Shown: positions 845 through 56,497, counted from the first letter of the stretch. The stretch is 64,000 bases of DNA from Nitrospirota bacterium (GCA_009773185.1 WPIF01000003.1:12760-76759); one strand, 5' to 3'. Notes: generated by a model not told the origin, from the sequence alone. A program made the numbers and translations.

Positions 845-880
845 CAGTATCAAAGGGTCAAAGTATCAAAGTTCCATAGC
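845..880. repeat. Degenerate octamer tandem tract (AGTATCAA AGGGTCAA AGTATCAA AGTTCCAT AGC)
   Basis: 8-nt periodicity read directly. Confidence 0.65.
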
Positions 881-900
881 CATGACACCAGCACAAACAT

Positions 901-935
901 TTGACATAGGCCTTTTGTGGTGTATATAATATACA
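901..935 (+). promoter_or_regulatory. Sigma70 promoter of the vapBC operon with overlapping inverted-repeat operator
   Basis: TTGACA 901-906, 18 nt, TATAAT 925-930; IR TGTATA-N3-TATACA 921-935; SD GGAGG before ATG 951. Confidence 0.75.
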
Positions 936-950
936 TCATGGGAGGTAACT

Positions 951-1196
951 ATGCCGACACTTAAAAGGACCCAAATGTATTTCCCCGAAGATATGCTCAG
1001 GGAACTGAAAAGAAAGGCAGATGATGAACATACCACTGTTTCTGATATCGTGAGAAACGCAGTTTCAGGAGTTCTGGAAGAGAAGAAAGAAAAAAACTGG
1101 ATAGAAGACCCTTTGTGGAATATGATTGGTGCGAGCAGGTCAAAAGACAGAGACCTTTCTGTTAATCATGATAAGTATCTTTACGGGAAAAAATAA
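951..1196 (+). CDS. vapB: Ribbon-helix-helix (CopG-like) antitoxin, VapB type
   Basis: KRTQMYF beta strand then two helices (LKRKA...SDIVRNAV); directly upstream of a PIN gene. Confidence 0.8.
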   Translation: MPTLKRTQMYFPEDMLRELKRKADDEHTTVSDIVRNAVSGVLEEKKEKNWIEDPLWNMIGASRSKDRDLSVNHDKYLYGKK

Positions 1197-1598
1197 GTGA
1201 GGCTATTTGTTGATACCTCTGCATGGCTTGCACTGAATGATAAAAATGATCAGTATCATAACAGCGCAACGGCAAAGATTGCGGCAGTAAAAAAAGACAG
1301 GATTGAACTTATCACTTCTGAATATGTAATTGACGAAAGCATAACCCTGATAAGATACAGGATTTCACATCAGGCAGCAGTCACTTTTGGAGATTCTCTC
1401 TTTAACAGCAGCATAGTCAATGTCCTGGATATAACGCAGGAAGACAGACTTAAGGCTTGGGAGGTATTCAAGAGGTATGGAGACAAAGAGTTAAGTTTTA
1501 CAGACTGCACGAGTTTTATATTAATGAGAAATCTGAAGATTCATAAGGCTTTTACATTTGACGAGCATTTCAAACAGATAGGGCTTGAAATATTCTGA
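1197..1598 (+). CDS. vapC: PIN-domain ribonuclease toxin, VapC type
   Basis: FVDTSAW, VIDE, SFTDC, FTFDEHF acidic PIN motifs; GTG start abutting the antitoxin stop. Confidence 0.9.
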   Translation: MRLFVDTSAWLALNDKNDQYHNSATAKIAAVKKDRIELITSEYVIDESITLIRYRISHQAAVTFGDSLFNSSIVNVLDITQEDRLKAWEVFKRYGDKELSFTDCTSFILMRNLKIHKAFTFDEHFKQIGLEIF

Positions 1599-3678: not shown

Positions 3679-4995
3679 CTAGAGGATATTTGCTGCCAGA
3701 GAGGCGAGCTCGCTTCTTTCGCTTTTTGTCAGTGTAATATGCCCGAAGATGTTCTGTCCCTTCATGCGCTCAACCACATAACTAAGGCCATTGCTGCTTG
3801 CGTCAAGATAGGGGCTGTCAATCTGATAAGGGTCGCCCGCAAGAATTACTTTAGTTCCCTCGCCGGCCCGGCTGATAATAGTTTTTACTTCATGAGGTGT
3901 AAGGTTCTGGGCCTCATCAACAATCATATATTGTTTTGGGATGGACCTGCCCCTTATATAGGTAAGGGCCTCTATCTCTATGGTCCTGCCGCCCCTGGAC
4001 TGCATTAAGTGGTCAACTTTTCCCTCAACATCTTCCCCGTTTGGGCCTGTGAGGAGGCGGAGATTGTCATAGATGGGCTGCATCCAGTTCCTCAACTTGT
4101 CTTCCTTATCTCCGGGGAGATAACCGATATCCCTTCCAAACGGGATAATAGGCCGCGAAACCAGGAGCTTTGTATAGGCCCGTTCCTCTATGACCTTTTT
4201 GATTCCTGTTGCAAGGGCAAGCAGGGTTTTGCCGGTGCCTGCCGCACCCATAAGGGTAACCAGCCTGATCTCGTCGCATAAAAGCAACTCCATGGCAAAA
4301 AGCTGTTCCATATTGCGGGCCTTGATACCCTTGGGCTGCACCTTCTGATGAAAGAGAGGGACTATTTGTCTTGTAGCGGTCAGATATTTGCCGATTGCAG
4401 TGTGCTTCGGATTTGCCTCATTTTCCAGGATAACAAACTCATTAGGATAGAGGTCCATGTTGTCTGGCAGGGACATAGAACCCGATGCATAGAAATTATC
4501 TATGATTCCGGCTGAAACAGAAATGCTGCGCCTGCCTGTATATATCTCATCAAAATTCACATTCTGCTTTTCATAGTCCATAACAGCAAGGCCGATGGCA
4601 TCTGCCTTTATTCTGGCATTAATGTCTTTGGAAACAAAGATTACCTTTTTATTTCCATTCCTGCTCAGGAAATAGGCAGCGCGCAGGATCAGGTTGTCCA
4701 TGACATTTGTTGCAAGCCCTTCCAGTTTTTCATCCGAAGTATTCTGGACCAGCACCTGCAACCTTCCGCCGTTTTCGAGTGTAACGCCGTCTCCAAGCGA
4801 GCCCTTTGTGCGAAGTTCATCCAGGGCCCTGATTATCTGCCTGGCATTGCGCCCCTTTTCATCAGCATCCCTCTTGAAGCGGTCCAGTTCCTCGATGACC
4901 TCAATAGGCAGAATCACATCATTGTCTTCGAAATCAAAAAGGCTGGTTGAGTTGTGCAGGAGCACGTTGGTGTCAAGAACAAACTGTTTTTTCAT
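3679..4995 (-). CDS. PIN-PhoH (PhoH2/YlaK-type) ATPase
   Basis: N-terminal PIN (VLDTNVLL), Walker A GAAGTGKT, IVDEAQN, GDPYQID. Confidence 0.9.
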   Translation of the reverse strand: MKKQFVLDTNVLLHNSTSLFDFEDNDVILPIEVIEELDRFKRDADEKGRNARQIIRALDELRTKGSLGDGVTLENGGRLQVLVQNTSDEKLEGLATNVMDNLILRAAYFLSRNGNKKVIFVSKDINARIKADAIGLAVMDYEKQNVNFDEIYTGRRSISVSAGIIDNFYASGSMSLPDNMDLYPNEFVILENEANPKHTAIGKYLTATRQIVPLFHQKVQPKGIKARNMEQLFAMELLLCDEIRLVTLMGAAGTGKTLLALATGIKKVIEERAYTKLLVSRPIIPFGRDIGYLPGDKEDKLRNWMQPIYDNLRLLTGPNGEDVEGKVDHLMQSRGGRTIEIEALTYIRGRSIPKQYMIVDEAQNLTPHEVKTIISRAGEGTKVILAGDPYQIDSPYLDASSNGLSYVVERMKGQNIFGHITLTKSERSELASLAANIL

Positions 4996-15855: not shown

Positions 15856-15879
15856 ATTTTTTATATTTTAAGTTTTACT

Positions 15880-15907
15880 GATGGCTGTTAGCTGATAGTT
15901 GTCAGCT
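15880..15907. repeat. Degenerate heptamer tract GATGGCT GTTAGCT GATAGTT GTCAGCT over the kinase stop codon
   Basis: 7-nt periodicity. Confidence 0.5.
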
Positions 15908-17981: not shown

Positions 17982-18108
17982 TAAAGGCGGTGCATAATAT
18001 TCTCGCTCATTCTCGACCCGATGACTCGGGTCTCCGAGGTTTTGCCTGTCCATGCATTCTGCATAGAGGCAGGCAAAAAAACCGCTCGAATACCATACAC
18101 CACCTTTA
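17982..18108 (-). other. ~127-nt structured intergenic element, copy 1 (copy 2 at 42724-42855)
   Basis: Long terminal stem, inner stems and three conserved blocks shared with copy 2; stem mismatches become G-T on the minus strand. Confidence 0.75.
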
Positions 18109-27906: not shown

Positions 27907-27964
27907 TTTATCTCTCTTCTTTAGAAAAATAAATTTCAGCTAAAATAAAGTTGATATAGTCCAT

Positions 27965-29088: not shown

Positions 29089-30067
29089 AGAAACAAAATT
29101 GCCCTCTGCCACATGCTCAATAATAGCGGATTCTTATAGATTCACGGCTGAAAAAATATCTCTTACAAAAAAGCTGTTACAAAAAGAATTAAAGGCTATC
29201 ACTTCTAAAGATAAATATTGTGTTGTGGCTGTAGGATCTTACGGCAGATATGAAGCATCACAAGAGTCAGATCTGGATGGTTATATCATCTATGAGAAAA
29301 ATCTTCCAACAAGGGTCCTCACAACAATAGATAGTAAAATCAAAAAAGTTGCTCGGGAAGGTAGCATAAGACTCAGCGAGGGGTTTAAACACATTTCACT
29401 TAATGATATGCATAAAAACATTGGCGGGGAGGATGATACAAATCCGTACATTACAAACAGAATTTTGTTTTTGCTCGAATCTGAATGCTTATATGGCCTG
29501 CCATTTTATTCTCTCGCTTACAAAAACATACTTAAGAAATACCTGAATGATGTCCTGAAATTCAAGAAACAGTCTCCTCGTTTTTTGTTGAGCGACATCA
29601 TCAGGTACTACCGCACAATTTGCGTAGATTACGAATTTAAGGTAACGGAAGAAAATAAAGACTGGGCGCTGAGAAATATTAAGCTCCGCTTTTCACGAAA
29701 GGGCTTATATTTTGGAGGCATAGCGATTCTTTTAAACAGCATGAATAAGAGAGATACAGATAAATATGCCTATATATACAAAAACTTAAGGTTGCCATTT
29801 GCCGACAAAATATCTCATATTTTACTTGAGCAACACAAGACCCATGAACATGCGAATATTTTGTCGCTATACGCTGATTTTTTGAAAGAGATTTCCGCGA
29901 AAAGAACTAGAGACCATCTCAAGAAACTGCATAAGTCGGATAGACGGAAAGATGAAAAATTTCTCAGCTTGGAGAAAAAGGCAAATAGTTTTAATGTGAG
30001 CCTTAGAAAACTGCTGGATAATGGAACTTGGGGAGACAAGAATTACATTGATCTCTTAGTGCTGTAA
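29057..30067 (+). CDS. Pol-beta-superfamily nucleotidyltransferase, GlnD/DUF294-like
   Basis: VAVGSYGR.EAS.ESDLD catalytic signature; helical C domain RFLLSDIIRYYRT, RNIKLRFSRK. Confidence 0.85.
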   Translation: MPLLYFEEFCKETKLPSATCSIIADSYRFTAEKISLTKKLLQKELKAITSKDKYCVVAVGSYGRYEASQESDLDGYIIYEKNLPTRVLTTIDSKIKKVAREGSIRLSEGFKHISLNDMHKNIGGEDDTNPYITNRILFLLESECLYGLPFYSLAYKNILKKYLNDVLKFKKQSPRFLLSDIIRYYRTICVDYEFKVTEENKDWALRNIKLRFSRKGLYFGGIAILLNSMNKRDTDKYAYIYKNLRLPFADKISHILLEQHKTHEHANILSLYADFLKEISAKRTRDHLKKLHKSDRRKDEKFLSLEKKANSFNVSLRKLLDNGTWGDKNYIDLLVL

Positions 30068-30111
30068 AGCACCTGACTATCTCGGTTAATAATATGTCAC
30101 GCCTTCCTCCC

Positions 30112-31860
30112 TCAAAACCGTATCCCCAAAAGTCCCCCATCATCTGTGGCATCAGTGAATGTCTGACGAATATAGTCACCGAATTTGAAGTCAGCACTGA
30201 AATCATTAGCGGGTATCGCATCGGAATTCATCGTGCATATATACTGAAAATTTAGTTTTGCTGATTCTTTGGCTGCCAGTTCAAGAGCTAAAGCCTTTTG
30301 CCTTTCATCAACATCAGCAAAGATTATGCTGTCATGGATTAGAAAGCCCGGCCTGAATTCTTTCTCCGCCCAAATCTGTGCAAACACAAGGTCATAACAG
30401 AATATCTTCATATTGCCAATGCCATGACTTCCGGAACGTTCAATGTTAACACCGAATTTAAGACCGGTCTTTGTAACATCAATTGAGAGTGTGCCAGGGG
30501 CTTCATAGAGCGCTTGAGAGTTCGAGTTAAAAAGAAGAATTGCTTTTTCCTTCTGCAATTTTCTTTCGGAAAGATCAGTGCTTAATTGCTGTTGAAGCAG
30601 TGCGATTTCTATGGCAAGCTCACTTTTCCCTTGCTCAAATCTTTTCAGGTTTTCTATCTTAATCGCCAAATCTTTCAGTTCAGAAACGGTTTTTTGGTTG
30701 TTATTCTGCAATTGTGTATATTCCTCAAGTGCACCGTGCTCTTTCAAAATAAGCATTAATTCAGCCCTTTTTGAGGATAGTGCCTGCTTCTGTTGTTCCC
30801 TTTGTGCTATGTTGGTTTTTATTCTTTCTATTTCTGTCTTTAGGAAGTCTTTTCTATTAGAAACAACCTGCTTGTGGAAGGACAAAACATCATCAATTCT
30901 TTTTGTCACCAGGGCTGATAAATGGAGACCTGCTTCCTCATAGATTTTAATAACAGATTCCGGCTTTGCGTCAACTTCTTCATTAAGGCTTGCCTCATAG
31001 TGCTCAAGCAGTCTCTTGTCATTGATGTTTTCGTTAATAAGTTCATGTATTTTTCTGGTTATGTCGTTTGCCTCTGACTCTATATTACTGTACTGTAGGT
31101 GCACTTTGAATTTTTTTAAATCCTTTTCTTCTTGCTTAGTCTGAGCTTCAAGCCTAACCTTAACCGCTTCAAGCTCTCCAAGCGTTCCCATTAAATTAGC
31201 AAGAATTTCTGATTGAGCTTCCTGCTTAATCTGAGCAAGAATTTTCTCTCTATCCTTCAATACCTGTAACCTAGAAACAAATTCCCAGCCAAGGCCAAGA
31301 AGATACGAATTATTCACCTGAATATCCCACGTAAGCTGTTGCTTGTACTGCTGAAATGGATTAAGAAAAGCTCCTCTCTGACCGTTACGCCTGACAATAT
31401 AAGAAATCAAACTTCTAAAAGTTGGTACGTATTTCATAGTGTCGTATGAGGGTTTAAGTCCAAACATCAATACTCCGAGTGTCTTATTCCAGTCATTTTT
31501 TGAAAGCACTTTAGTACCTGTCTCAAGGTCGGCATCTGGAGGAATCGGCCATCCAGAACAGTCCCCGTCTATGATGATTTTATTTTGTTTGGCAGTATTC
31601 CTAGTTACAGAATATTTTTTCCCTGCTATGTCAAGGTCTATGGTGAATGACCAGTCATCCAATTCTTTTTTGGAGAGGGTTTCACCTTTATTTGCGCCCA
31701 TACAAAAATGTATAATCTCAACAAGAGTAGACTTTCCAAGCCCATTTCGTGAATCTTTTTTTGTGGACTCTTTTGTCCTTTCCGCAAGAATTACATTGAA
31801 TCCAGGCTGAAACTTTATGGTTTTGAATGACGGCTTATCGCTCTTTACGGAATATATCAT
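30112..31860 (-). CDS. SMC/Rad50-like ABC ATPase (DUF2326, ABC-3C/LmuB-like)
   Basis: Walker A RNGLGKST, central coiled coil, signature-like GSHG, FLIHDS..ADVDERQ. Confidence 0.85.
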   Translation of the reverse strand: MIYSVKSDKPSFKTIKFQPGFNVILAERTKESTKKDSRNGLGKSTLVEIIHFCMGANKGETLSKKELDDWSFTIDLDIAGKKYSVTRNTAKQNKIIIDGDCSGWPIPPDADLETGTKVLSKNDWNKTLGVLMFGLKPSYDTMKYVPTFRSLISYIVRRNGQRGAFLNPFQQYKQQLTWDIQVNNSYLLGLGWEFVSRLQVLKDREKILAQIKQEAQSEILANLMGTLGELEAVKVRLEAQTKQEEKDLKKFKVHLQYSNIESEANDITRKIHELINENINDKRLLEHYEASLNEEVDAKPESVIKIYEEAGLHLSALVTKRIDDVLSFHKQVVSNRKDFLKTEIERIKTNIAQREQQKQALSSKRAELMLILKEHGALEEYTQLQNNNQKTVSELKDLAIKIENLKRFEQGKSELAIEIALLQQQLSTDLSERKLQKEKAILLFNSNSQALYEAPGTLSIDVTKTGLKFGVNIERSGSHGIGNMKIFCYDLVFAQIWAEKEFRPGFLIHDSIIFADVDERQKALALELAAKESAKLNFQYICTMNSDAIPANDFSADFKFGDYIRQTFTDATDDGGLLGIRF

Positions 31861-32084
31861 TTTTCAACCCTTCTCAAGAGACCGTCCTTAAAATCAACAG
31901 TGCCAATTATGAATAAGAAATCAAGCGCCAAGGTGAACCTCTCAAAGCTTTTGATTTCCGGCAAAGAATGCGTTCCAGCCCATAAAGAAGTTACTGTTCT
32001 GTCCGCGTCAAGATGTCTCAAGAGGATTGCCCCTACGCCAATTAGAGTGTTCGATAGTTTTAAGTGTTTTGTAGGAAGAATCAT
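31857..32084 (-). CDS. Small middle component of an ABC-3C/Lamassu-like system (LmuC-like)
   Basis: MILPTKH start, FTLALDFLFIIG; ATGA overlaps with both neighbours. Confidence 0.75.
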   Translation of the reverse strand: MILPTKHLKLSNTLIGVGAILLRHLDADRTVTSLWAGTHSLPEIKSFERFTLALDFLFIIGTVDFKDGLLRRVEK

Positions 32085-32887
32085 TTCTCAAACACCTCAC
32101 ATTTTTCAAACAAATAGACAAGCACTGTCAGCCCAGCAGCTCTCTGTTTAAAATCTGTAGCACCTGCACATGCGAAATCCAAAAGCCCATTAAATAGGTC
32201 GTCCCCACTCAGCATTTCAGTATTTTTCAGTTGTTCATACTCCATTACAAATCCTTGTGACAAATGCTCACCAAATTCTATATCAGGGCATCTATTAACA
32301 AAATCAGCTACCTGCTTTGCTTGTATCATTCCCATCATGATCAGTTGCTCAATGGTGTTAGAAAGGCCGTTCTTCTTAATTTTATCCTTGGGCGGAATTA
32401 GCGTTAATGAGTCATTTACGACTGCCTGACCAGACATGATATACCGTGTAACAACACTAAGCTCTGCAAAAGTCACCTCTACAACAGCTTGGCCAGTGAG
32501 CATATTTATCCAATCCTCATGGTCTCGTTTAATGTCGGATAGTTTTTCGACAGTATATGTATTTGGCTGATCATCAATTTGTTTATGGCAGGATGGGCAC
32601 ATAAAAATAAGGTTGGGGTGAGCATTTCGCTCTATGTCAGACATGTTGGCATCATAGCGAGCAGATCCTGGTTTTTCACCTTTGATGTGGGCCATCTCGG
32701 CAACGAGTGACGCAGGATCAGTTGCAGTACTGTCAACGACCAGAATTTTCCGACAATCAGGCATTGCACATCTATTGCCACTTTTAGTACATAGTATTTT
32801 CTGATCTTTTGGTTTTATTTCGCTCATGTTTTTAGTTTTGCAGTTGAGGTGTCCACGGATAACAATCTCCTTTCCGACAATTTTCAA
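32081..32887 (-). CDS. HNH endonuclease effector fused to an ABC-3C C-terminal domain (LmuA-like); likely start 32827
   Basis: SGNRCAMPDC, AHI.G....ARY, NLIFMCPSCHKQID; terminal VYLFEKCEVFE. Confidence 0.85.
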   Translation of the reverse strand: MKIVGKEIVIRGHLNCKTKNMSEIKPKDQKILCTKSGNRCAMPDCRKILVVDSTATDPASLVAEMAHIKGEKPGSARYDANMSDIERNAHPNLIFMCPSCHKQIDDQPNTYTVEKLSDIKRDHEDWINMLTGQAVVEVTFAELSVVTRYIMSGQAVVNDSLTLIPPKDKIKKNGLSNTIEQLIMMGMIQAKQVADFVNRCPDIEFGEHLSQGFVMEYEQLKNTEMLSGDDLFNGLLDFACAGATDFKQRAAGLTVLVYLFEKCEVFEK

Positions 32888-33004
32888 CCCAAAATCCCTT
32901 TCAATAATAGTTATTTTGAACGGTTTTTTGCAAGCATATGCCAGATGGTGAACAAAAGGTCTGAAACCCCGACTTGCTTATTTCTGTTCTATAGAACTTT
33001 GGAA

Positions 33005-33673
33005 CTATCTCAGCGACATCTTTGCATCAAGAACAATCGCGCCTTTGGGATAAAGCGAGACAGGATTTAAATCTATCTCTTCAACATCTCCTGATGAGAT
33101 TATCTCTGAGACAGCGAGGATTACCTTTATAAGGGCGTCCTTATCAACAGCAGGTTTTCCGCGAAAGCCTTCAATCAGTTTATACCCTTTTATCTGCTGA
33201 ATAAGCCAAAACGCGTCTTTCTCCTTCATCGGCGCTAAGGCAAATGCGACATCCTTGTATAATTCTACAAATACACCGCCAAGCCCGAACATCACAACAG
33301 GGCCGAACTGCTTGTCTATTATTCCTCCGACAATAACTTCAAGCCCCTCCGGAGCCATTTCCTCGACAAGCACTCCTTCTGCATTCTCTATCCCTGAAAG
33401 TTCATTAACAGCATTTTTTAATTCATCCTCATTTTTAATCCTGAGCCTTATCCCTTTTGCATCAGTCTTTGACGTTATCTTTGAAGAAGAGACCTTGGCA
33501 ACAAGGGGATATGAGAGAGCCGAGAGCTGAGAGCCGAGGGCTGAGAGCGGTGTTTCTTTAGGTATGAACACACCCATTGGCACAGAAAGCCCGATGCTTT
33601 TCAGAAACCCTTTGACTTCGTGTTCAAGGAAAGTTCTTTTGTCTTTATTCTTTTCGAAAAAAGCTTTTATCAT
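33005..33673 (-). CDS. Stand-alone ATP-grasp (beta) subunit of an ADP-forming acyl-CoA synthetase, with a heptamer insert
   Basis: YPLVAKV, HK-like SKTDA.G, VEEM, GPVVMFGLGGVFVE..KDV, EIDLNP, VLDAK. Confidence 0.88.
   Translation of the reverse strand: MIKAFFEKNKDKRTFLEHEVKGFLKSIGLSVPMGVFIPKETPLSALGSQLSALSYPLVAKVSSSKITSKTDAKGIRLRIKNEDELKNAVNELSGIENAEGVLVEEMAPEGLEVIVGGIIDKQFGPVVMFGLGGVFVELYKDVAFALAPMKEKDAFWLIQQIKGYKLIEGFRGKPAVDKDALIKVILAVSEIISSGDVEEIDLNPVSLYPKGAIVLDAKMSLR
33514..33548. repeat. In-frame heptamer tract (N-GAG(A/G)GC) x5
   Basis: AGAGAGC CGAGAGC TGAGAGC CGAGGGC TGAGAGC; encodes the LSALGSQLSALS segment. Confidence 0.85.
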
Positions 33674-36840: not shown

Positions 36841-36903
36841 AGACGCTATTCTATATTTAAGCTTTGGGCTGCGTCAATCGTGCATAATAAATCAGATAAG
36901 CAA

Positions 36904-38844
36904 TCAGGGGTCAACAGCAATGCTTATTTTTAGATTCTTGCATCCCTCTGCAAGCTTTAAAAATTCTTTTGCGGAAGAATAAAGCTTTGTCTTTGATGTG
37001 GTTTTTATAAGCATTGAATGTTCCTTGCGGCCTTTTCTGCTCATTGAGGCCGAAGGCCCGAGAATCTCCAGTTCTTTATTATCTTGAACAAGCCTTTTTA
37101 TAACAGCTGCCACCCTGTTATCATCGTAATCACTGCCTTTAAAGGTAATAAGCGCAATTTTCGAATACGGAGGATATGACATTTCTTTTCTTTTTGAGAG
37201 TTCTTCCTCGCAAAATCCGGCATAATCATGGTTTCTGATAAATTTAAACAGATAGTTCCTGGGCATTCTTGTCTGGATAAACACCCTGCCCAGGGGCTTT
37301 ATCTTATCAGCTATGGCAGACAATTCCTGATAAGCCTTTTCTATTGCCCTGAAGTCAGGCAGGTTTATATATATATCAGCGTTCAGGACAGCTCCCATAT
37401 CAAATCCGTCTTGTGGCATCAGTCTCTTCGTCATAAGCTTTGTACCGAGAACTATGGTCTCGCCTTTTATTATCTCTGAAAGGCCGGCCTTTGCTGCCTT
37501 TTTTTCTATCCTGTCGCTGTCGAGCCTGACAGGGTCAATATTGAAAAGTTTTTTTATATTCTCTTCAACTCTCTGTATGCCTGTGCCACGGAGCTCAATT
37601 TTGAAGCTGCCGCATTTTTTGCACTTTTCAGGAGGCAGAGAGCTAAAACCGCAGTAATGGCACCTGAGAACCTTATCATTCTTATGGAAAATCAATGGAA
37701 TACCGCAACTGTTGCAGGTTTCTGTATTATCGCATTCTTTGCAGGTGAGCAATGAATACCCTTTCCTGTTAATGACAAACATAATTCGTTCATTTTTTTT
37801 GATAGCATATGATGCTGCATCAATTACGGTCTTTGATATGTTCTGGGCAGGCTGTTTTTCATTATACATATTCAATATTCTTATCTTTGGCCTCTGGACA
37901 GATGCCTCAGGCCTCAGGAATGCATACTTGTTCTGTTTTACATTGTAGATTGACTCAAGAGACGGGCATATTGAGGATAATACAACTGTTGCCTTTTCAA
38001 GATAACCCCTCATTACAGCAACATCCCTTGCATTATACCTCAATCCTTCTTCTGTTTTGTATGAACTGCTGTGTTCCTGCATCACTGCAATCAGAGATAC
38101 GTTCTTCATTGGAGCAAAGACAGCTGCCCTTGTTCCGAGCACTACGTCGCATTCCCCGGAAAGGACTTTTTCGATTGTAGCTGAACGCTGGCCGTGGCTC
38201 ATACCGCTGTGAAGTATGCAGAGCTTTTCCCCGGCAATCTCCCTTATAAAGGGTTCAAGGTGGCTTATGTGCGCAATCTCAGGGACAAGGATTATTGCGC
38301 TTCCCTGTTGGCGCGTTTGAAGGAGCCTCCTGATAAATGATATTTCATAAAAAGAGGCCGGTGCATGAAGAAGAAATGCTTTATATTCTTTTTTTACAAC
38401 AGACCTGTTAATTGCTGAAATTATATTTTCTTCAATTTCATTCAATGGCCTCTGCTCTCTGCCATCTGCCATCTGCCCTCTGGCCTGAGTTTCCCTTGCC
38501 TTTACTTTCCTGAATGCCTCCTTTGGAAGCATATTCTTTAACACGACGCCTTTGTTTGCAATGTAGTAATCCGACATCCAGTCAAGCAGTTTTAATAAAG
38601 GCGGTTCAAGCATTGGAGTTTCGCCATGGATGTCGCTTATATAGCGCAAAGCGTTCGGCGCAGAGCGTGCAGCATGTGAGGATTTACTTAAGATTATTCC
38701 CTTTGCAACCTGATTTTTCAAAGGCGCAGAAACGAGCATTCCAGGCAGGGCTTTATCAATAAGATTGTCAGGGCATTTATAGGTTAACGGGCCGAGATTT
38801 ATAGGGAAAAGCACATCAATAAATTCCATGTTGGATTTTAGCAC
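36904..38844 (-). CDS. priA: Primosomal protein PriA with degenerate helicase motifs
   Basis: 3'-DNA-binding N domain, VPEI, GTRA.VFAP, YNARD, eight-Cys Zn region, PDFRA.E; motifs I, II, III and VI altered. Confidence 0.88.
   Translation of the reverse strand: MLKSNMEFIDVLFPINLGPLTYKCPDNLIDKALPGMLVSAPLKNQVAKGIILSKSSHAARSAPNALRYISDIHGETPMLEPPLLKLLDWMSDYYIANKGVVLKNMLPKEAFRKVKARETQARGQMADGREQRPLNEIEENIISAINRSVVKKEYKAFLLHAPASFYEISFIRRLLQTRQQGSAIILVPEIAHISHLEPFIREIAGEKLCILHSGMSHGQRSATIEKVLSGECDVVLGTRAAVFAPMKNVSLIAVMQEHSSSYKTEEGLRYNARDVAVMRGYLEKATVVLSSICPSLESIYNVKQNKYAFLRPEASVQRPKIRILNMYNEKQPAQNISKTVIDAASYAIKKNERIMFVINRKGYSLLTCKECDNTETCNSCGIPLIFHKNDKVLRCHYCGFSSLPPEKCKKCGSFKIELRGTGIQRVEENIKKLFNIDPVRLDSDRIEKKAAKAGLSEIIKGETIVLGTKLMTKRLMPQDGFDMGAVLNADIYINLPDFRAIEKAYQELSAIADKIKPLGRVFIQTRMPRNYLFKFIRNHDYAGFCEEELSKRKEMSYPPYSKIALITFKGSDYDDNRVAAVIKRLVQDNKELEILGPSASMSRKGRKEHSMLIKTTSKTKLYSSAKEFLKLAEGCKNLKISIAVDP
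38447..38486. repeat. In-frame heptamer tract in priA (G(C/G)NNTCT) x5
   Basis: GGCCTCT GCTCTCT GCCATCT GCCATCT GCCCTCT GGCCT. Confidence 0.75.
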
Positions 38845-38905: not shown

Positions 38906-41382
<2,477 letters not shown>

Positions 41383-42723: not shown

Positions 42724-42855
42724 GCAGGGCCGGGACATAGCATTTTCGCTCATTCCCGGGCTTCGCCCTCCGAGGTTTTGCCCGCTTTTATATTTTGATT
42801 TTTACTGTGTGAATTGCGGGCAAAAAAACCGCTCAAATACTATGCCCCAGCCTGC
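42724..42855 (-). other. ~132-nt structured intergenic element, copy 2
   Basis: Shares TCGCTCATTC, CTCCGAGGTTTTGCC and GGCAAAAAAACCGCTC with 17982-18108; different but base-paired stems. Confidence 0.75.
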
Positions 42856-43937: not shown

Positions 43938-45155
43938 GTGAAACAACCTTTAAAAAAGCATACATATCCAAGCCTCATCACCGACCTTGCCTCCCTCATC
44001 GAACAGGGTCGCAAGACAGCGGTGCGGTATGTGAATACTGCGCTGGTGACGACATATTGGTTTATAGGCAGGAGGATTGTTGAATATGAGCAGGGGGGTA
44101 AAGAGAGAGCAGAGTATGGAGATGTGCTGCTTGAACGTTTAGCTAAAGACCTCAGCAAAAAATTTAGAAAAGGATTTGGACGAGAAAATCTTCGTTTAAT
44201 GCGTCAATTCTATCTTACCTACCAAAGCCCTAAAATTTCCCAGACACTGTCCGGGAAATTACCGGATAAAAAAGGGGAAGCAGCGTCAACTGAATTGCCA
44301 ACGATACTTCAGATACCGTCTGAAGAATCTACCTTGCCATTGAAATCCCAAACGGTGTCTGGGAAATCCCCCAAAGGCTATGCATTGTGTAGCCAATCCG
44401 AGATTTCGCACACACTGTCTGCGAAATTCCCTCTTTCATGGTCACACTACTGTCTTCTTATGCGTCTCGATGAGCCATTTAAGCGTGAATTCTATGACTC
44501 TGAATGTATCCGAAGCAACTGGTCGGTCAGGCAGCTCGACAGGCAAATCCAGTCAATGCTCTATGAGAGGACAGCTTTATCAAAGAAAAAATTGTCGGTT
44601 ATTTCCAAAGCCCACGCAAACCCTATTATTCTTAAGCCTGAAGACGAAATCAAAGACCCGTATATTCTGGAATTTCTTGGTTTGAAAGATGAGTATTCGG
44701 AATTACAGCTTGAAGAGGCTTTAATCAGGCATATCGAACATTTTCTTCTCGAATTGGGAAATGGCTTTACCTTTGTTGCCAGACAGAAAAGGATTACCCT
44801 TGAGGGGAGTCATTACCGCCTTGACCTTCTTCTTTATCATCGTATATTGAGGTGCCTTGTTGCAATTGATTTGAAAATAGGAGAGTTCACTCACGCCGAT
44901 GCAGGGCAGATGAACCTTTATGTGAATTACTTAAAAGATAAAGAAAAACTTCCCGATGAGAATGATCCCATAGGCATAATCCTCTGCACAGACAAAAAGA
45001 AGACCGTTGTTGAGTATGCTTTGGGCGGAATGAATAACAAAATATTTGCTTCAAAATATAGGCTGCAACTTCCAGATACAGATGTCTTAAAAGCAGAAGT
45101 AGAACATGAAAGGCAGAGACTTGTTGAGATGAAGATAGTTGAAAAAAAGCCTTAA
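43938..45155 (+). CDS. yhcG: YhcG/DUF1016 PD-(D/E)XK nuclease-like protein inserted in the kds operon
   Basis: YW.IG..IVE.EQ.G, LSWSHY, KDPY.LEFL, ELG.GF.FV.RQ.R, DLL.Y, IDLK, DAGQM..Y. Confidence 0.92.
   Translation: MKQPLKKHTYPSLITDLASLIEQGRKTAVRYVNTALVTTYWFIGRRIVEYEQGGKERAEYGDVLLERLAKDLSKKFRKGFGRENLRLMRQFYLTYQSPKISQTLSGKLPDKKGEAASTELPTILQIPSEESTLPLKSQTVSGKSPKGYALCSQSEISHTLSAKFPLSWSHYCLLMRLDEPFKREFYDSECIRSNWSVRQLDRQIQSMLYERTALSKKKLSVISKAHANPIILKPEDEIKDPYILEFLGLKDEYSELQLEEALIRHIEHFLLELGNGFTFVARQKRITLEGSHYRLDLLLYHRILRCLVAIDLKIGEFTHADAGQMNLYVNYLKDKEKLPDENDPIGIILCTDKKKTVVEYALGGMNNKIFASKYRLQLPDTDVLKAEVEHERQRLVEMKIVEKKP
44234..44428. repeat. Three in-frame 27-bp imperfect palindromes within yhcG (44234-44260, 44342-44368, 44402-44428)
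   Basis: Copy 1 AATTTCCCAGACACTGTCCGGGAAATT pairs at 12 of 13 positions; copy 3 shows a compensatory change. Confidence 0.8.
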
Positions 45156-46852: not shown

Positions 46853-48576
46853 TAAAAAATAAGGTTATTTATTCGGGAGCTTTGCTTTTTGCATTTCTTT
46901 GGATATTATCTTTTCCTCTGCCCTCCTTTGCAGAAGTCGCAGACTCGCCTGTTGCGGCTCAACCTCACGAGACTCCGCAGGATATTTATAAGGCAAGGCT
47001 TGATAGCGGACTGAAAAACACCGAGCCATATTCTTATGCCTTAATTAAAAAAGCGCAGGCCGACACATCCAATGCAAAACGCCTTTTAACAGAGGCAATA
47101 AAATATTCTCCGGATCTTCCGGCTGCATATTTTGAAATGGCAAGGATAAGCTTTTCGCTTTCTCCTGAGGGCATATTTGAAGGCCTCAATTATATGATAG
47201 AAGGCATCAGGGCTTATGAAAGAAATTTCTGGTGGATGGCAAGCATCGCCGGGCTGGCATTTATCAGCCTTATATCTTCATTTATTCTTGCCCTTATAAT
47301 GGTTGCCGTTATGAGATTTTTTGCGGATTCACCACTCATATCCCATGAGATAAGAGAAGATAAAAAGAAGGCTTTAATTGTCCTGTCCCTTGTCCCCCTC
47401 TCTCTTGCAGGCCCTTTATTTTTTATCGCAGGCACGATATGTCTCCTGGGGCTGTATTTCAGCAGGGTGGATAAAACCGTTGTATATGCATCCGTATTAT
47501 TCCTTTTATTATCGCCCTTTTTGCTGCGCATAACAAACATTTTCCTTTCCGCAGCTTCCCCTGAACTCAGGGCCAGCGTTGCTGTAAATGAGAGCAGGGA
47601 TAACAAACATGCCCTCTCCGCCCTCAAGGGCAAAAATGATTTTGTCTCTCTTTTTTCCTACGGGCTTGCGCTTAAAAGAGAAGGGCATTATGAAGAGGCA
47701 ATAGCAGTTTATAAAAATATTTCACCATCATCTCCTGACCCGCGGGTTTATGTAAACCTCGGGAATTGTTATTACGCCATTAATGACATTGCTGCTGCTA
47801 CAGATTTTTATAAAAAATCCCTGGAGATTAAACCGTCGGCTGCGGCATATTATAATCTGAGCCAGATTTTCCGGGAAAAGTTTGATTTTGTAAAAGGAGA
47901 GGAGTATTTTATTGAAGCAACAAAACTAAACAGGGAAGCCGTATCAGGTTTTGCCGCAAATTCACAAAGAAACCCAAACCGTTTTCTTATGGACGAGACC
48001 CTTCCGTTATCCGTTTTATGGAAATACGCGGACAGCAGATCTCGGGAACTGATAAAAATCTCCTTATTAAACTCAGCCCTTACAGTTCTGATTGCGATAA
48101 GCTTAATCGTGCTGTTTTACCTGCTTGGCTCCAAAGCAAAAGACAGGGCGTACAGATGCAAGAGGTGCAACACAATACTTTGCGGCAAATGCGGGAAAGA
48201 ACTGCTCTGGGGACAGATGTGCGCCCAATGTTACAAATCCCTGGTTAAATTCGACGGGCTCGATTCAAGGGTGAGAGTAGCAAGATTGCTGGAGGTTCAG
48301 GAACTCCAGGCAAAAAAAAGAACTATAATAAAAATTCTTTCATTAACTCTCCCTGGAATAGCCCATATCTATGCCGGGAAAATCCTGGAGGGAAGCCTGT
48401 TCCTGTGGCCATTCCTGTTCCTGCTGATTTTAATATTACTAAACCCATTTTTTCATACAGGCCTTTCCTTTTTTTCTAACGATTGGCTAACCATTCCGTC
48501 ACTGGCCTTGATAGTTGTCTTATTCTTTATTTCCGGCATCGTTGTAAGGAGGAGGCTTAACAGAGGATGGCTTTAG
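46849..48576 (+). CDS. Multi-pass membrane protein with TPR repeats and a Cys-rich zinc-finger-like segment
   Basis: TPR pattern (VYVNLGNCYY, AAYYNLS); CKRC..CGKC..CAQC; several TM helices. Confidence 0.75.
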   Translation: MIKNKVIYSGALLFAFLWILSFPLPSFAEVADSPVAAQPHETPQDIYKARLDSGLKNTEPYSYALIKKAQADTSNAKRLLTEAIKYSPDLPAAYFEMARISFSLSPEGIFEGLNYMIEGIRAYERNFWWMASIAGLAFISLISSFILALIMVAVMRFFADSPLISHEIREDKKKALIVLSLVPLSLAGPLFFIAGTICLLGLYFSRVDKTVVYASVLFLLLSPFLLRITNIFLSAASPELRASVAVNESRDNKHALSALKGKNDFVSLFSYGLALKREGHYEEAIAVYKNISPSSPDPRVYVNLGNCYYAINDIAAATDFYKKSLEIKPSAAAYYNLSQIFREKFDFVKGEEYFIEATKLNREAVSGFAANSQRNPNRFLMDETLPLSVLWKYADSRSRELIKISLLNSALTVLIAISLIVLFYLLGSKAKDRAYRCKRCNTILCGKCGKELLWGQMCAQCYKSLVKFDGLDSRVRVARLLEVQELQAKKRTIIKILSLTLPGIAHIYAGKILEGSLFLWPFLFLLILILLNPFFHTGLSFFSNDWLTIPSLALIVVLFFISGIVVRRRLNRGWL

Positions 48577-49640: not shown

Positions 49641-49741
49641 GATGCACGATACAGGTCGGAGCGACTCTCAGCGGAGACTCGCTTCGAGATGCAGGATGAA
49701 AATATCATGAATTGTGTATCGTGTATCGTGTGTCGAGCATC
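49641..49741. repeat. Intergenic element: heptamer arms (GATRCAS) and (GTGTATC) as inverted repeats around a hairpin
   Basis: GATGCAC GATACAG-hairpin-GATGCAG ... GTGTATC GTGTATC GTGTGTC GAGCATC. Confidence 0.8.
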
Positions 49742-49747
49742 ATTTTC

Positions 49748-50536
49748 ATGAAAAAAAAGGCTGTTATTTTATTAAGCGGCGGGGTTGACTCCTCGACCAC
49801 CCTTGCCATTGCAAAATCACGAGGCTATGAGTTATATGCGCTTAGCTTTGACTACAGCCAAAGGCATAAAATAGAACTTGACGCAGCAAAAAAAGTTGCC
49901 CTGGTGCTCGGTGTAAAAAAGCATCTGACAATAAAATTTGACCTGAGAGAGATTGGCGGCTCAGCCCTGACATCAGGGATGGAAGTGCCGAAATCTCAAA
50001 TCTCAAATCTTAAATCTCAAATCCCTGTCACCTACGTTCCTGCACGGAATACAATTTTCCTGTCTTTTGCCCTTTCATGGGCCGAGGTGCTTTCAGCGGA
50101 AAATATATTCATAGGCGCAAACGCAGTTGACTATAGCGGGTATCCGGACTGCAGGCCGGAATATCTTAAGGCCTTTGAGGCTATGGCCAATCTTGCAACA
50201 AAGGCATCTGTTGAAGGGCAGATGAAATTCAGAATCAACGCGCCTTTAATCAACATGACCAAGGCAGAGATTATTAAAAATGGGAAACGTCTCGGCCTTG
50301 ATTATTCGCTGACATGGAGTTGCTATGACCCGCAGCCCGTTAAAAAAGGGGTTAGGGGTCAGTCTCCTCAGGCGACCCGCCGAGGCGGGGGGTTAGGGGT
50401 TAGAAGAAAAGGCCAATCCCCAATCCCCAATCCCCAATTTCCATACCTGCCGTGCGGCAGATGTGACAGCTGCCTTTTCAGGGCAAAGGGTTTTAAAGAG
50501 GCAAAGATAAAAGATCCCCTACTATATAAAGGGTAG
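49748..50536 (+). CDS. queC: 7-cyano-7-deazaguanine synthase with two repeat-derived inserts
   Basis: [34 protein letters not shown]; start set at MKKKAV. Confidence 0.95.
49991..50025. repeat. In-frame heptamer tract (AAATCTC) x5 in queC
   Basis: AAATCTC AAATCTC AAATCTT AAATCTC AAATCCC. Confidence 0.9.
50348..50441. repeat. In-frame paired heptamer arms in queC: (GGGGTTA)-type x2, hairpin, x2, spacer, (CAATCCC)-type x4
   Basis: Read directly; lies between SCY and CGRCDSC. Confidence 0.9.
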
Positions 50537-53729: not shown

Positions 53730-53816
53730 AATGGCCTGATGCATAATGAAAATATCAGGAGCCGTTGCAAATAACCATGTTGACAAAGACTCCCCGAACC
53801 AATATATTAAATAGCA

Positions 53817-54524
53817 ATGGACTCAAAGATAAATGAATTGTATGAGTTTGGCATGTCGCTGTTTCAGAATGGCAAATACTCTGAGGCAGAACCCATATTC
53901 AGGGACATCCTTAAAATAAATCCTAACTATGCAGATGTATTAAACAAGCTTGGCATTATAACGCACCTGAAAGGCAACACCAAAGAGGCGTCAGAGTATT
54001 TTGAAAGGGCCCTTGAACTGAACCCGAAATACACAGAGGCTTCCCTTAACCTTGCCATAGCATACAATGATATGGGCGAATTCAAGAAGGCGCAGGAGGT
54101 ATTTTCAAAGGCAGCGCAGATAGCCCGTCCAACCCCTACATCTCTGGACCCGTTCGCAGCAGGGAAGCTGGCAAACGAACATTATAAGATAGGCAATATC
54201 TACTTTGATTTCGCGATGTATGATGACGCCATAGAAGAATACTCCAAAGCCCTGAAGCTTCATCCATTGCTTGCTGATGTGCGCACAAAACTCGGCATGG
54301 CACTGAGAAGCAAGGGGCTCTATGAAGAAGCAATAGTACATTTTACAAAGGCCAAGGAAATAAATCCCGGTTATGGACAGGCATGGGTGCAGCTGGGCCT
54401 GACCTATTATATGAAGGGCCTTGCAGGCCTTGCCTTTGAGGAGTGGGAAAGCGCCCTGAAGCAAAATCCCAGCCTGAAAGAAGCAAAGACGTATATCCAA
54501 CTCCTTAAAAAAAAGGAACAGTAG
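53817..54524 (+). CDS. TPR-repeat protein
   Basis: About six TPR motifs (NPNYADVLNKLG, NPKYTEASLNLA, AWVQLG). Confidence 0.9.
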   Translation: MDSKINELYEFGMSLFQNGKYSEAEPIFRDILKINPNYADVLNKLGIITHLKGNTKEASEYFERALELNPKYTEASLNLAIAYNDMGEFKKAQEVFSKAAQIARPTPTSLDPFAAGKLANEHYKIGNIYFDFAMYDDAIEEYSKALKLHPLLADVRTKLGMALRSKGLYEEAIVHFTKAKEINPGYGQAWVQLGLTYYMKGLAGLAFEEWESALKQNPSLKEAKTYIQLLKKKEQ

Positions 54525-54530
54525 CCAGCA

Positions 54531-55499
54531 GTGTCCCTTCTTGAAATAAGGGATCTTAACGTCTCATTCAGGACTAAGGCAAGTCCGACAAAAGTGGTCA
54601 GCAATCTTTCCCTGGATATTAAAGAGTCCGAGGTATTCGGGCTTGTCGGCGAAAGCGGTTGCGGCAAGAGCCTTACAGCGCTTTCTATAATGGGCATCCT
54701 CCCTCCTAATGCTTACGCCGAAGGCTTAATAAATTTTAACGGCAAAGACCTGCTCATGCTTGACAGGGAATCCCTGCGCCGCCTCAGAGGCAGGGAAATA
54801 GCGATGATATTTCAGGAGCCAATGACATCCCTGAACCCGGTCCTGACCATTGGCTATCAGATATCTGAAGTTATGACTACACACCTTGGCCTTTCAAAAA
54901 AAGATGCCTTTGATAGGGCAGTGGATTTGCTTAGAGATGTAAAGATACCTTCTCCTGAGATAAGGGTAAAGGAGTATCCGCATCAAATGTCAGGAGGCAT
55001 GAGGCAGAGAGTGATGATAGCAATGGCAGTTGCATGCAATCCTTCTCTCCTTATTGCCGATGAACCAACAACAGCGCTCGATGTGACTATACAGTCGCAA
55101 ATACTTGAACTTCTCCAGAAACTCAGGGAAGAAAGAAAGATGTCAATTCTCCTCATAACTCACGACCTTGGCATTATCGCAGAAAATGCCAAAAAGGCCG
55201 CGATAATGTATGCAGGAAGGATTGTAGAACTTGCAGAGGCAGGAGAATTATTTAATAATCCAGGGCATCCTTATACAATGGGACTGCTTGATTCTTTGCC
55301 AAAGGAAAAAGGGAAACCATTGAAACCGATTCCCGGGACGGTCCCGCGCCCTGATAAGCTTCCTCAGGGATGCAAGTTTTCTGACAGATGCAGGTTTGTG
55401 GTGCCGCCCTGCCGGACTGAAGAACCGGAACTAAAAGAAGTTGACGGCCGGCATCCTGTGCGGTGCATAAGGGCTGCGGAGATAAAATGGCCCTACTGA
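54531..55499 (+). CDS. Peptide ABC transporter ATP-binding subunit (OppD/DppD-like)
   Basis: GESGCGKS, YPHQMSGGMRQR, DEPTTALD, GCKFSDRC. Confidence 0.95.
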   Translation: MSLLEIRDLNVSFRTKASPTKVVSNLSLDIKESEVFGLVGESGCGKSLTALSIMGILPPNAYAEGLINFNGKDLLMLDRESLRRLRGREIAMIFQEPMTSLNPVLTIGYQISEVMTTHLGLSKKDAFDRAVDLLRDVKIPSPEIRVKEYPHQMSGGMRQRVMIAMAVACNPSLLIADEPTTALDVTIQSQILELLQKLREERKMSILLITHDLGIIAENAKKAAIMYAGRIVELAEAGELFNNPGHPYTMGLLDSLPKEKGKPLKPIPGTVPRPDKLPQGCKFSDRCRFVVPPCRTEEPELKEVDGRHPVRCIRAAEIKWPY

Positions 55500-56497
55500 A
55501 GGTTCAATCTCTCAAAAAACATTTTCCTGTTAAAAAAGCCTTTGGTGAAACAGCTCAATGGTTAAAGGCTGTTGACGGCATTGACTTTTCAGTTGATGAA
55601 AATAAGGTCTTTGTGCTTGTTGGTGAAAGCGGATGCGGCAAATCAACGGTTGCCAGGCTTGTCCTCAGGCTTATAACTCCTACGTCAGGGAGAGTCCTTT
55701 TTGACGGCAAAGACATATTCGGACTTGACGGTGATTCTTTAAAGGCATTCAGGAAATCCGTGCAGATTGTATTTCAGGACCCTTTTGCTTCGCTGAACCC
55801 GAGAAAGACTGTCTTTGATACAATATCAGAGCCCTTAAAGATACACAGGATTACAGAGAAGAAGAACATGAAGGATGCGTGCGCAGAACTTTTAAAAAAG
55901 GTAGGGCTCGGTACTGATATCATGAACCGCTATCCGCACGAATTCAGCGGTGGACAGCGACAGAGGATATGCATTGCAAGGGCGCTTGCAGTAAATCCAA
56001 AAATAATAGTTGCCGATGAACCGCTCTCAGCGCTTGATGTCTCGATACAGGCGCAGATAATCAACCTTCTGCAGGACCTCAGAAAGGAAACAAAAATAGC
56101 ATTTCTATTCATAAGCCATGACCTTAAGGTAGTCCATTATTTTAGCGATACGGTTGCGGTTATGTATCTGGGTAAAATTTTAGAACATGCAAAAACAGAA
56201 GATCTCTTCATGGAGCCGTTACATCCATACACTATTTTGTTGCTCTCATCAGCGCCAAAGGTAAAAACTGAAGCGTTCAGCGTTCAGCGTTCAGCGTTCA
56301 GCGACAAAAAACTCCAAACTCCAAACTCCGAACGCCAGCCTGATATCGGCGAGGTCCCAAGCCCCATACATATTCCTTCCGGATGTCCATTCCATCCGAG
56401 GTGTCCAAAAAGATTTGAGCCATGCGATAAGATTATTCCTGAACTGAAAGAAGCAAAGGGAAGGCTTATATCATGCCATCTGTGGAATCCGTATTAG
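55487..56497 (+). CDS. Peptide ABC transporter ATP-binding subunit (OppF/DppF-like) with a heptamer insert
   Basis: GESGCGKST, YPHEFSGGQRQR, GCPFHPRC; start set at MALLKV. Confidence 0.95.
   Translation: MALLKVQSLKKHFPVKKAFGETAQWLKAVDGIDFSVDENKVFVLVGESGCGKSTVARLVLRLITPTSGRVLFDGKDIFGLDGDSLKAFRKSVQIVFQDPFASLNPRKTVFDTISEPLKIHRITEKKNMKDACAELLKKVGLGTDIMNRYPHEFSGGQRQRICIARALAVNPKIIVADEPLSALDVSIQAQIINLLQDLRKETKIAFLFISHDLKVVHYFSDTVAVMYLGKILEHAKTEDLFMEPLHPYTILLLSSAPKVKTEAFSVQRSAFSDKKLQTPNSERQPDIGEVPSPIHIPSGCPFHPRCPKRFEPCDKIIPELKEAKGRLISCHLWNPY
56272..56337. repeat. In-frame paired heptamer arms: (AGCGTTC)x4, spacer, (AACTCCA)-type x4
   Basis: Read directly; encodes AFSVQRSAFSDKKLQTPNSERQ. Confidence 0.9.

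Follow-up and report, generated by a model that had tools for sequence, protein, structure and literature searches.

The 64,000-nt stretch of DNA analysed here (the window; C20:12760-76759, GCA_009773185.1 WPIF01000003.1) comes from a 2.79-Mb, 44-contig metagenome-assembled draft genome of a Nitrospirota bacterium, whose closest relatives are uncultivated groundwater Nitrospirota/Thermodesulfovibrionales metagenome-assembled genomes (MAGs). It is dotted with short tandem arrays of 7- or 8-nt units, some of them set out as pairs of inverted arms. The main new result of our study is that inverted arms of equal period bracket genes of the PF05635/TIGR02436 family, from Nitrospirota to Nostoc. The tracts of the window belong to the bacterial class of tandem heptamers and octamers resembling the short tandemly repeated repetitive (STRR) sequences, and this Nitrospirota lineage is saturated with them. 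Paired heptamer arrays are in themselves not new; what we describe is their many-unit, heavily intragenic and translated form. Regarding the origin of the pairs in the window, we give an even chance to the reading that they are gene-less (miniature or decayed) members of a class of hairpin cassettes typified by the intervening sequences (IVS) of 23S rRNA. Typically, a pair has a purine-rich arm followed by a pyrimidine-rich one, both of equal period and each ~31 nt long, with a short spacer rich in A/T in between; given the mutual complementarity of the arms, it forms a long imperfect hairpin that is equivalent on either strand.

PF05635 genes between inverted arms

The genome contains two genes of PF05635/TIGR02436, the family named '23S rRNA intervening-sequence protein' (S23p), at C34 114231-114611 and C15 54395-54778, which were found by tblastn with a family consensus and were confirmed by Pfam and NCBIfam. 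The nearest solved structure to their products is 2GSC, the pentameric XCC0516 of Xanthomonas campestris. The C34 gene is framed by a purine arm, (GATGCAA)x6.3, and a pyrimidine arm, (ATCGTGA)x5.1, of the GATRCAN family, which is also the commonest family among the gene-less pairs; the C15 gene has period-9 arrays on either side. A scan of metagenomes yielded 80 homologous loci, 70 of them with both flanks, and arrays of period 7-9 were present at most ~160 nt from the gene at 66 of these 70 (both sides, 40; upstream only, 17; downstream only, 9), the background farther from the genes being 0.30 arrays per kb. The period was equal at 47 of 48 two-sided loci, the arms were mostly 29-31 nt long, and in 38 unique arm pairs 87% of the unit positions were complementary, compared to 62 ± 2% for permuted partners. 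Homologues 59-83% identical to the C34 protein retain arms of the GATRCAN type, and their 47 flanks represent 35 unrelated contexts. The arms are kept while the contexts change, and therefore gene and arms travel together. An orthologous PilY1-pilin junction in a close relative (L166) retains, besides the purine arm, the initial seven bases of the open reading frame (ORF), the gene and nearly the whole other arm being gone; by sequence comparison, this locus is best described as a deletion derivative of the PF05635 cassette. More distant relatives have two other small genes at this junction. A first-pass annotation of the window had suggested, as one possible source of the tracts, a non-autonomous element. 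The idea gains support from the present data, in that PF05635 genes in many contexts share these arms, which co-vary with the protein lineage.

Among 72,556 plasmids, 25 carry a PF05635 homologue, mostly cyanobacterial ones, with further cases from Riemerella, Azospirillum and Gemmatirosa. Arrays of 7- or 8-nt units lay beside the gene at all 12 plasmid loci inspected (Nostoc, Calothrix, Anabaena, Riemerella, Azospirillum, Gemmatirosa). The Azospirillum copy, with arms (GAGGACG)x4 and (GTCYTCT)x4, is a classic IVS within 23S rRNA and the only copy so placed; PF05635 genes between such arms were found in five phyla, the classic IVS included. On two plasmids, from Pseudanabaena and Anabaena sp. 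90 (L172, L179), a gene for a PF05635 four-helix bundle and its heptamer arrays lie in a CRISPR-Cas locus, flanked by cas6 and cas4.

The IVS in the 23S rRNA of Coxiella burnetii carries GACAGAT heptamers of strain-variable copy number just upstream of its S23p ORF; it has a 28-bp terminal stem that is cut by RNase III and is held to be a selfish element (Warrier et al. 2016, PMC4990558). Leptospira also has IVS of the S23p/PF05635 type (per PMC4990558). The elements described here are alike in combining an inverted-repeat stem with tandem heptamers: the ~28-bp terminal inverted repeats of the IVS have their counterpart in arms of ~31 nt that are complementary at 5-6 of 7 positions and fold better than swapped partners, and the genome's two PF05635 genes as well as the metagenomic (66/70) and plasmid (12/12) loci are armed likewise. 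The elements of the window differ from the rRNA IVS in having no ORF, none of PF05635 type being found in the window, and in their location, which is not helix 25 or 45 of 23S rRNA but protein-coding loops, leader peptides and intergenic DNA. Our literature search found no paper that generalises the link between PF05635 and heptamers or reports these repeats in Nitrospirota, which is not proof that none exists.

Architecture of arrays and arm pairs in the genome

Tracts of the window were located with Tandem Repeats Finder (TRF) and then checked by direct reading of the sequence, whereby every tract listed in the first-pass annotation was recovered at its coordinates, three of them (15878-15907, 27956-27976 and 32993-33010) as weak members. 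Across the whole genome, arrays of at least 3 copies number 334 for period 7, compared to 45, 77 and 58 for periods 6, 8 and 9, respectively, and the total of ~440 period-7/8 arrays makes up ~0.5% of the sequence. A strict detector found 103 period-7 arrays in the genome and 0 in two Markov-5 simulated genomes. There are ~134 canonical heptamer units, all joined by single substitutions into one network. For the analysis of pairing, 438 arms of at least 2.8 copies (348 of period 7 and 90 of period 8) were used, and two arms with a gap of up to 80 nt were defined as an adjacent pair. On this basis, 67 pairs were found where ~5.5 were expected, with about one third of the arrays paired, and the periods of the partners always agreed (60 pairs 7/7, 7 pairs 8/8, 0 mixed). 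The order of the arms was purine-rich to pyrimidine-rich in 41 pairs and the opposite in 4 (9 vs 1 for the intergenic pairs alone); of the 60 left arms, 22 contain CAG and none contains CTG, with the mirror image in the right arms.

When the left unit is compared with the reverse complement of the right unit, the actual partners agree at 4.72 of 7 positions and permuted partners at 3.82 ± 0.12 (0/2000 permutations); perfectly complementary are 2 of the 60 pairs. The folding energy of the real pairs is -0.254 kcal/nt vs -0.180 kcal/nt for partner-swapped ones (p = 1e-5). Arm lengths peak at 30-33 nt, which those of periods 6 and 9 do not, and many pairs have A-runs upstream and T-runs downstream. 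The tract density and the arm complementarity, which the first-pass annotation had proposed to compare with controls, thus exceed those used here (Markov-5 genomes, permuted and swapped partners), and the shared architecture that it had pointed out is non-random in each of its components: pairing, equal period, orientation and complementarity. Hidden partners of the solo arrays were sought, with the result of a slight excess on the expected side and no more, and the divergence of units along the arms, analysed for growth polarity, gave no gradient, TRF borders biasing the arm ends.

Empty sites and allele turnover in relatives

Loci of relatives, given here as L numbers (L001, L002, L081 and so on), were taken from independent NCBI, ENA, JGI and Logan assemblies, in which arrays are present at the same sites. 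One host gene is queC (plus strand). The QueC loops that follow EVPK and SCYDPQ are short in distant orthologues, and the Nitrospirota relatives have inserts at exactly these two loops that differ in length and sequence. Loop 1 of the window contains an in-frame array of AAATCTC x4.7 (49991-50023; TRF and alignment of the relatives), and L001 and L002 have a GGGGTTA/CCAATCC pair with identical borders. Loop 2 of the window starts with an outer left arm GGGGTTA GGGGTCA G (50348-50362), continues with a 26-nt GC hairpin mini-element of the A type (see below) placed in frame within the left arm (50363-50388), and ends with the inner left arm GGGGTTA x2, the spacer AGAAGAAAAGG and the right arm CCAATCC x3.7 (50389-50438); the TRF bounds of these arms are 50348-50403 (GGGGTTA) and 50413-50438 (CCAATCC). 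The heptamer CCCCAAT fits the cyanobacterial STRR1 unit (CCCCART). L002 has a hexamer pair in loop 2. Upstream of queC, the window has an intergenic pair composed of the left arm GATGCAC GATACAG G (49641-49655), a GC hairpin mini-element of the B type, TCGGAGCGACTCTCAGCGGAGACTCGCTTCGA, inserted at the inner end of this arm (49656-49687), and the right arm TATCGTG x4.7 (49703-49735), the reverse complement of the GATRCAN family; the place of this GATRCAN pair is taken by a GGGGTTA pair in L002 and by a two-unit remnant in L001. Period-7/8 arrays, some of them inverted pairs, also occur in queC neighbourhoods of Desulfobacteraceae, Planctomycetaceae and Pirellulales MAGs (L022, L023, L053, L054, L061, L067); the queC loci sampled from alpha- and gammaproteobacteria and archaea had no period-7/8 arrays.

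The octamer pair of kdsB (39401-39478, plus strand) is likewise in frame and consists of AGTGCCAA x4.2 (39401-39434), the spacer ATAGTAC and AACTACGG x4.6 (39442-39478). The loop that it occupies has no insert in orthologues of 244 aa. At least four unrelated alleles of this loop are found among proteins that, the loop aside, are 93-96.5% identical, and the octamer allele of the window reappears in a lineage that is only 70% identical. In L084 (~3770-3900), a 42-nt C/G-rich hairpin, CCCCACCTTATTCCTCCCCTTGCCAAGGGGAGGACAGGAGGG, lies in frame within the spacer of the kdsB arm pair. Across ~25 kb aligned with relatives of 92-97% identity, indels of at least 5 nt are few, and many of them fall in repeat arms or are small hairpin elements, the others being short in-frame inserts. 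One 24-nt in-frame insert, GCCTGTTGCGGCTCAACCTCACGA, is found in a TPR-like gene (46947-46970) and not in L081 and L002. A further small hairpin insertion polymorphism concerns the stop codon of priA (window 36887-36890), which is followed by a 37-nt perfect hairpin, AAACCCCGTTAGAAGACATTCGCCCTTCTAACGGGGT, in L081, L082 and L083 and not in the window.

Turnover at fixed sites is fast relative to point substitution. Alignment with orthologues, as recommended in the first-pass annotation, did reveal empty sites in QueC and KdsB, and its contention that simple slippage is insufficient holds as far as slippage in situ is concerned: since unrelated arm families occupy the same site in genomes 92-97% identical, slippage in place alone is hard to accept.

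Arrays within genes and their translation

Using a gene map from our own simple caller (2684 genes, 90% coding), 235 of 372 array loci were placed within ORFs (63%), 94 in intergenic DNA and 43 at gene edges; arrays are over-represented between genes and at gene 5' ends, and 18 of the 39 pairs located in genes lie at most 120 nt from the gene start. The identity of the host genes in the window was borne out by Pfam; besides KdsB and QueC, they are the following, each with its tract in frame. On the minus strand, GAGAGCC x4.9 (33515-33548) lies in an ATP-grasp_5 gene (33005-33673), and CCTCTGC x5.4 (38449-38486) lies in the part of priA (36904-38844) that joins the 3'BD domain to the helicase domain. 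On the plus strand, the gene of an OppF-like ABC ATPase has a heptamer pair (56272-56337) formed by AGCGTTC x4.6 (56272-56303), the spacer ACAAA and AAACTCC x4.1 (56309-56337), the arms of which are complementary at only 4 of 7 positions.

On translation, the purine-rich arm yields a polar stretch rich in K/R/N/Q and the pyrimidine-rich arm a hydrophobic stretch. Translated arms are predicted from sequence to serve as the n- and h-regions of Sec or lipoprotein signal peptides, or as prepilin leaders, in proteins that resemble TolB, LptE, PilQ, CbiM, M16 peptidases and prepilins, and this property of the arms would explain why pairs cluster at gene 5' ends. Elsewhere in ORFs, the arrays are in-frame loop inserts. 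The selective filter for tolerated inserts, as envisaged in the first-pass annotation, fits these locations, which are loops empty in other orthologues and signal or leader peptides that are cleaved. In two regions, C15 51-66 kb and C34 106-116 kb, one arm family (TAGCGTG/CTACACG; AGCGTAT/TACACGC) recurs at neighbouring gene starts at a spacing of 4.6-5.2 kb, and the genes concerned include prepilin-like ones with arm-built leader peptides.

Two functional interpretations of the intragenic arrays were tried and gained no clear support. Phase variation would be suggested by units that are not a multiple of 3 and by the proximity to gene 5' ends, as in contingency loci; ORFs are not split at the arrays, the relatives show in-frame alleles only, and 12 frameshift-like candidates resemble ordinary gene borders. 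Selection at the RNA level for pairing in mRNAs is contradicted by a trend in the opposite direction: within genes, pairing in the sense strand is weaker than folding of the antisense strand.

GC-rich hairpins, the 5.1-kb island and further tracts of the window

Two families of GC hairpins are found within arrays of the genome, A (25-26 nt, ~26 loci, consensus TCKCCYCAGGCGACYCGCCGAGGMG) and B (~32 nt, 9 loci). About 40% of the A/B copies lie in or beside arrays, though arrays account for just 0.5% of the genome. They mostly follow ...CAG or ...G, and the interrupted repeat unit resumes beyond the hairpin with no duplication. The L001 array, also of four units and identical in other respects, does not have the hairpin found at 50363-50388 in queC loop 2, the net difference being +27 nt with no unit duplicated. 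We considered a target-duplication ratchet, in which insertion and excision of hairpins would leave 7-bp duplications; given four left-arm units in the window and in L001 alike, and a net gain of 27 nt without unit duplication, the ratchet is ruled out as the source of the arrays. Insertion after ...CAG or ...G without duplication, as seen in the sequence, is one trait expected of hairpin elements of the type of repetitive extragenic palindromes (REP/REPIN) with their RAYT transposases or derived from IS200/IS605, another being a cognate Y1 (HUH) transposase in the genome. The 26-32-nt GC hairpins within the heptamer arrays also resemble the small dispersed repeats (SDR) of Nostoc (Elhai et al. 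2008), which, as cited in PMC4390886 and PMC3116915, are hairpins 21-27 nt long with a precise insertion site in another short repeat, as in the case of SDR5 in HIP1; as far as these citing papers describe them, the SDR differ in sequence and host, and the target in the present genome is the heptamer array after ...CAG or ...G. In the window, a GC-rich hairpin element flanked by heptamer units of the AAGTCAG type, related to a hairpin family present genome-wide, lies at 1746-1807. Separately, two copies of a structured element of ~130 nt (17982-18108 and 42724-42855) have the blocks TTCTCGCTCATTC...CCGAGGTTTTGCC...GGCAAAAAAACCGCTC in common; they gave no Rfam match at the gathering threshold, tRNA being the sole Rfam match of the window.

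The remaining tracts of the window are intergenic or belong to an island. They comprise the octamer array AGTATCAA x3.4 (846-872) and an octamer pair with left arm ATAGTACATAGTGCCATAGCA, a 10-nt spacer and a right arm of five GAACTAAG-type units (1651-1721), all intergenic and identified by TRF and sequence reading, as was an imperfect array of the AGCTGAT type in a 46-nt intergenic gap (15878-15907). The 5.1-kb island (27909-33013) carries HD-hydrolase, nucleotidyltransferase and SMC-like genes and begins directly 3' of a tRNA (27821-27903); L081, with flanks 97% identical, has an empty site with 53 unrelated bases instead. At its left end, 48 nt inside, there is an octamer word of ~two units similar to a left arm (27956-27976), which matches 1651-1671 at 19 of 21 bases and is therefore a real homologue; at its right end there is a right-arm-like word of ~two units of the GGAACTAT type (32993-33010). 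Both words lie inside the ends of the island, which on its left starts at the 3' end of the tRNA. The view of the first-pass annotation that accessory DNA is flanked by arms fails as a general rule: besides the tRNA border, complementary arms 81 nt-20 kb apart show no genome-wide excess (15 in purine-to-pyrimidine order vs 26 in the reverse), and the arms are accordingly rejected as general ends of kb-scale cargo, though this one island may be such a case. A further difference in gene content concerns 43938-45155, where the window has one 405-aa gene between a SIS/CBS gene and a HAD hydrolase gene and L081 (15020-18161) has an OLD-family AAA/TOPRIM gene with DUF6978 and DUF1828 genes, which makes this a variable slot in the kds operon.

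Relation to known heptamer repeats

Heptamer repeats have served as fingerprinting targets in cyanobacteria since 1990, the year in which the STRR were described by Mazel et al., reportedly as dispersed tandem heptamers of several unit types; to our knowledge, no emphasis has been placed on an inverted pairing of their arrays. The Nitrospirota arrays agree with the STRR in being dispersed tandem heptamers and in the excess of period 7, but the host is of another phylum and the genome has far more unit types, octamers and a heavy intragenic load. Over-representation of heptamer repeats in many bacteria was noted in 2007, as cited in PMC4692102. Xanthomonas genomes have 70-75 convergent GGGAATC pairs each, mostly of four units and capable of forming stem-loops, and these arrays vary in length and sequence between close species, their origin being unexplained; the same paper also covers G-rich heptamers of Nostoc PCC 7120 (Rehm et al. 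2015, PMC4692102). Shared with the Nitrospirota genome are the tandem 7-nt units, about four per array, and the close pairs on opposite strands. However, Xanthomonas has one dominant G-rich unit and 89-93% of its arrays in intergenic DNA, whereas the Nitrospirota genome has ~134 units plus octamers, 63% of the loci in ORFs, arrays translated into loops and signal peptides and a strict purine-then-pyrimidine rule.

Similar paired sites on opposite strands, each of 3-5 tandem repeats of 7-9 nt with variable spacing, are known from Geobacter metallireducens, including 49 elements of four heptamers within and between genes (Aklujkar et al. 2009, PMC2700814); they differ in that they belong to few unit classes and were read as regulator-binding sites, with no link drawn to PF05635 or translation. 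The TAACTGA repeats of Beggiatoaceae, cyanobacteria and Bacteroidetes, present as 2-6 units near start codons and patchy across phyla (MacGregor 2015, PMC4679880), differ in having a single unit, 169 direct sets vs one indirect, and a location mostly upstream of ORFs.

Origin of the arm pairs

As hairpin cassettes of the IVS type that have lost or never had a gene, the pairs might be explained as follows. Arrays would grow and homogenise through replication slippage; complementarity of the arms would be kept since the hairpin is the form in which the element propagates or acts; copies would persist only where they are tolerated, namely between genes, in loops at the protein surface and in signal or leader peptides that are cleaved off; and pairing would be weakened in the sense strands of mRNAs. 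Solo arrays may be half-remnants or offshoots of slippage. The elements are not classical miniature inverted-repeat transposable elements, given that near-identical internal sequence and target-site duplication are both lacking: spacers differ between copies of one arm family, and duplication of the target was not seen at the insertion compared with L001. In its widest form, which we put forward as speculation and regard as rather unlikely to hold in full, the proposal is that PF05635/TIGR02436 cassettes with equal-period inverted heptamer arms constitute one cross-phylum class of selfish hairpins, of which the STRR and the Xanthomonas GGGAATC, Geobacter, Beggiatoa and Nitrospirota repeats would be gene-less or half-decayed derivatives. 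An Avd-like pentamer would recognise its own arms and drive homing from hairpin to hairpin, and the arms in Nitrospirota would have been co-opted as n- and h-regions of signal peptides.

Several observations weigh against deriving the pairs from gene-bearing cassettes. The two PF05635 genes, neither of them in the window, face 67 pairs and ~305 solo arrays of ~134 unit types, and most of the solo arrays are without a detectable partner. The unconserved spacers and the missing target duplication just mentioned count in the same direction, as does the laxer purine-then-pyrimidine order at PF05635 loci (22 vs 12). Comparison of the spacers of gene-less GATRCAN pairs with the resident PF05635 gene gave a mean z of 0.44, vs 0.28 for other pairs, and the idea of ORF remnants in these spacers was dropped, there being one clear case and no general remnant. 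The location counts depend on our simple gene map, and PF05635 genes could prefer to land in pre-existing hairpins.

The last point belongs to the chief rival explanation, to which we assign a real but minor probability. It holds that the arrays arose locally from short inverted repeats or seeds, by slippage favouring 7-nt units and template switching at quasi-palindromes, with no movement, and that PF05635 genes settled in the resulting hairpins. An excess of heptamers has been ascribed to polymerase slippage (Mrazek 2007, as cited in PMC4692102), and local origin accords with the single-substitution network of units, the copy-specific spacers without target duplication, the solo state of the majority of arrays and the retention of the kdsB octamer allele across lineages of only 70% identity, as vertical descent would allow. 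However, it must accommodate unrelated arm families with identical borders in genomes 92-97% identical, types of alleles shared by distant lineages while close relatives differ, and an arm family that tracks the PF05635 lineage over unrelated contexts; additionally, slippage predicts neither the narrow ~31-nt mode of the arms nor their strict orientation.

Selection by the host, for RNase III processing sites, bidirectional terminators or sites of a global regulator or OB-fold protein, appears improbable to us. The A-runs before and T-runs after many pairs and the enrichment in intergenic DNA and at gene 5' ends would suit it, and there are precedents in the Geobacter paired sites annotated as global-regulator sites (PMC2700814), the translational regulation proposed by MacGregor for TAACTGA repeats (PMC4679880) and the IVS stems cut by RNase III (PMC4990558). 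Yet ~134 different units speak against one binding protein, 63% of the loci are within ORFs of unrelated housekeeping genes, the sites are vacant in many orthologues and turn over rapidly, and the weaker sense pairing in genes suggests avoidance rather than use.

A repeat-adding enzyme that writes the arrays, whether telomerase-like, based on a reverse transcriptase (RT) or healing breaks at both 3' ends before joining, is very improbable. Extension of both 3' ends of a break would be expected to yield [U]n-spacer-revcomp[U']n with purine-rich 5' halves and equal period, and PF05635 proteins are distantly related to Avd, the accessory protein of diversity-generating retroelements (DGR; weak bAvd match). 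Against this, many unit types contrast with a single template, and arm complementarity beyond chance is not predicted by independent tailing. A scan of the genome for RT signatures gave nothing DGR-like and a single retron-like ORF (C27 minus strand, ~134.7-135.8 kb; NIDLKDFFPSV ... LPQGSPCSP ... YADD), and no direct evidence was found for the repeat-templating enzyme conjectured in the first-pass annotation. An artefact of assembly or binning, for which the draft state of the 44-contig genome might be adduced, is practically negligible, since the arrays lie in frame within intact genes and reappear at matching positions in assemblies made independently by several sources.

Implications

The rules of the paired arrays are now quantitative: equal period, arms of ~31 nt, purine-then-pyrimidine order and about one mismatch per unit. 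Whatever the origin of the arms, non-triplet repeats that encode loops of essential enzymes as well as signal and leader peptides represent a route for protein innovation, and they call for caution in the annotation of gene starts and domains in such MAGs. Lastly, the PF05635 link provides a testable lead on the source of bacterial heptamer repeats; if it is true, one class of selfish element would stand behind the fragmentation of rRNA, the STRR and a large part of the small indels in these genomes.

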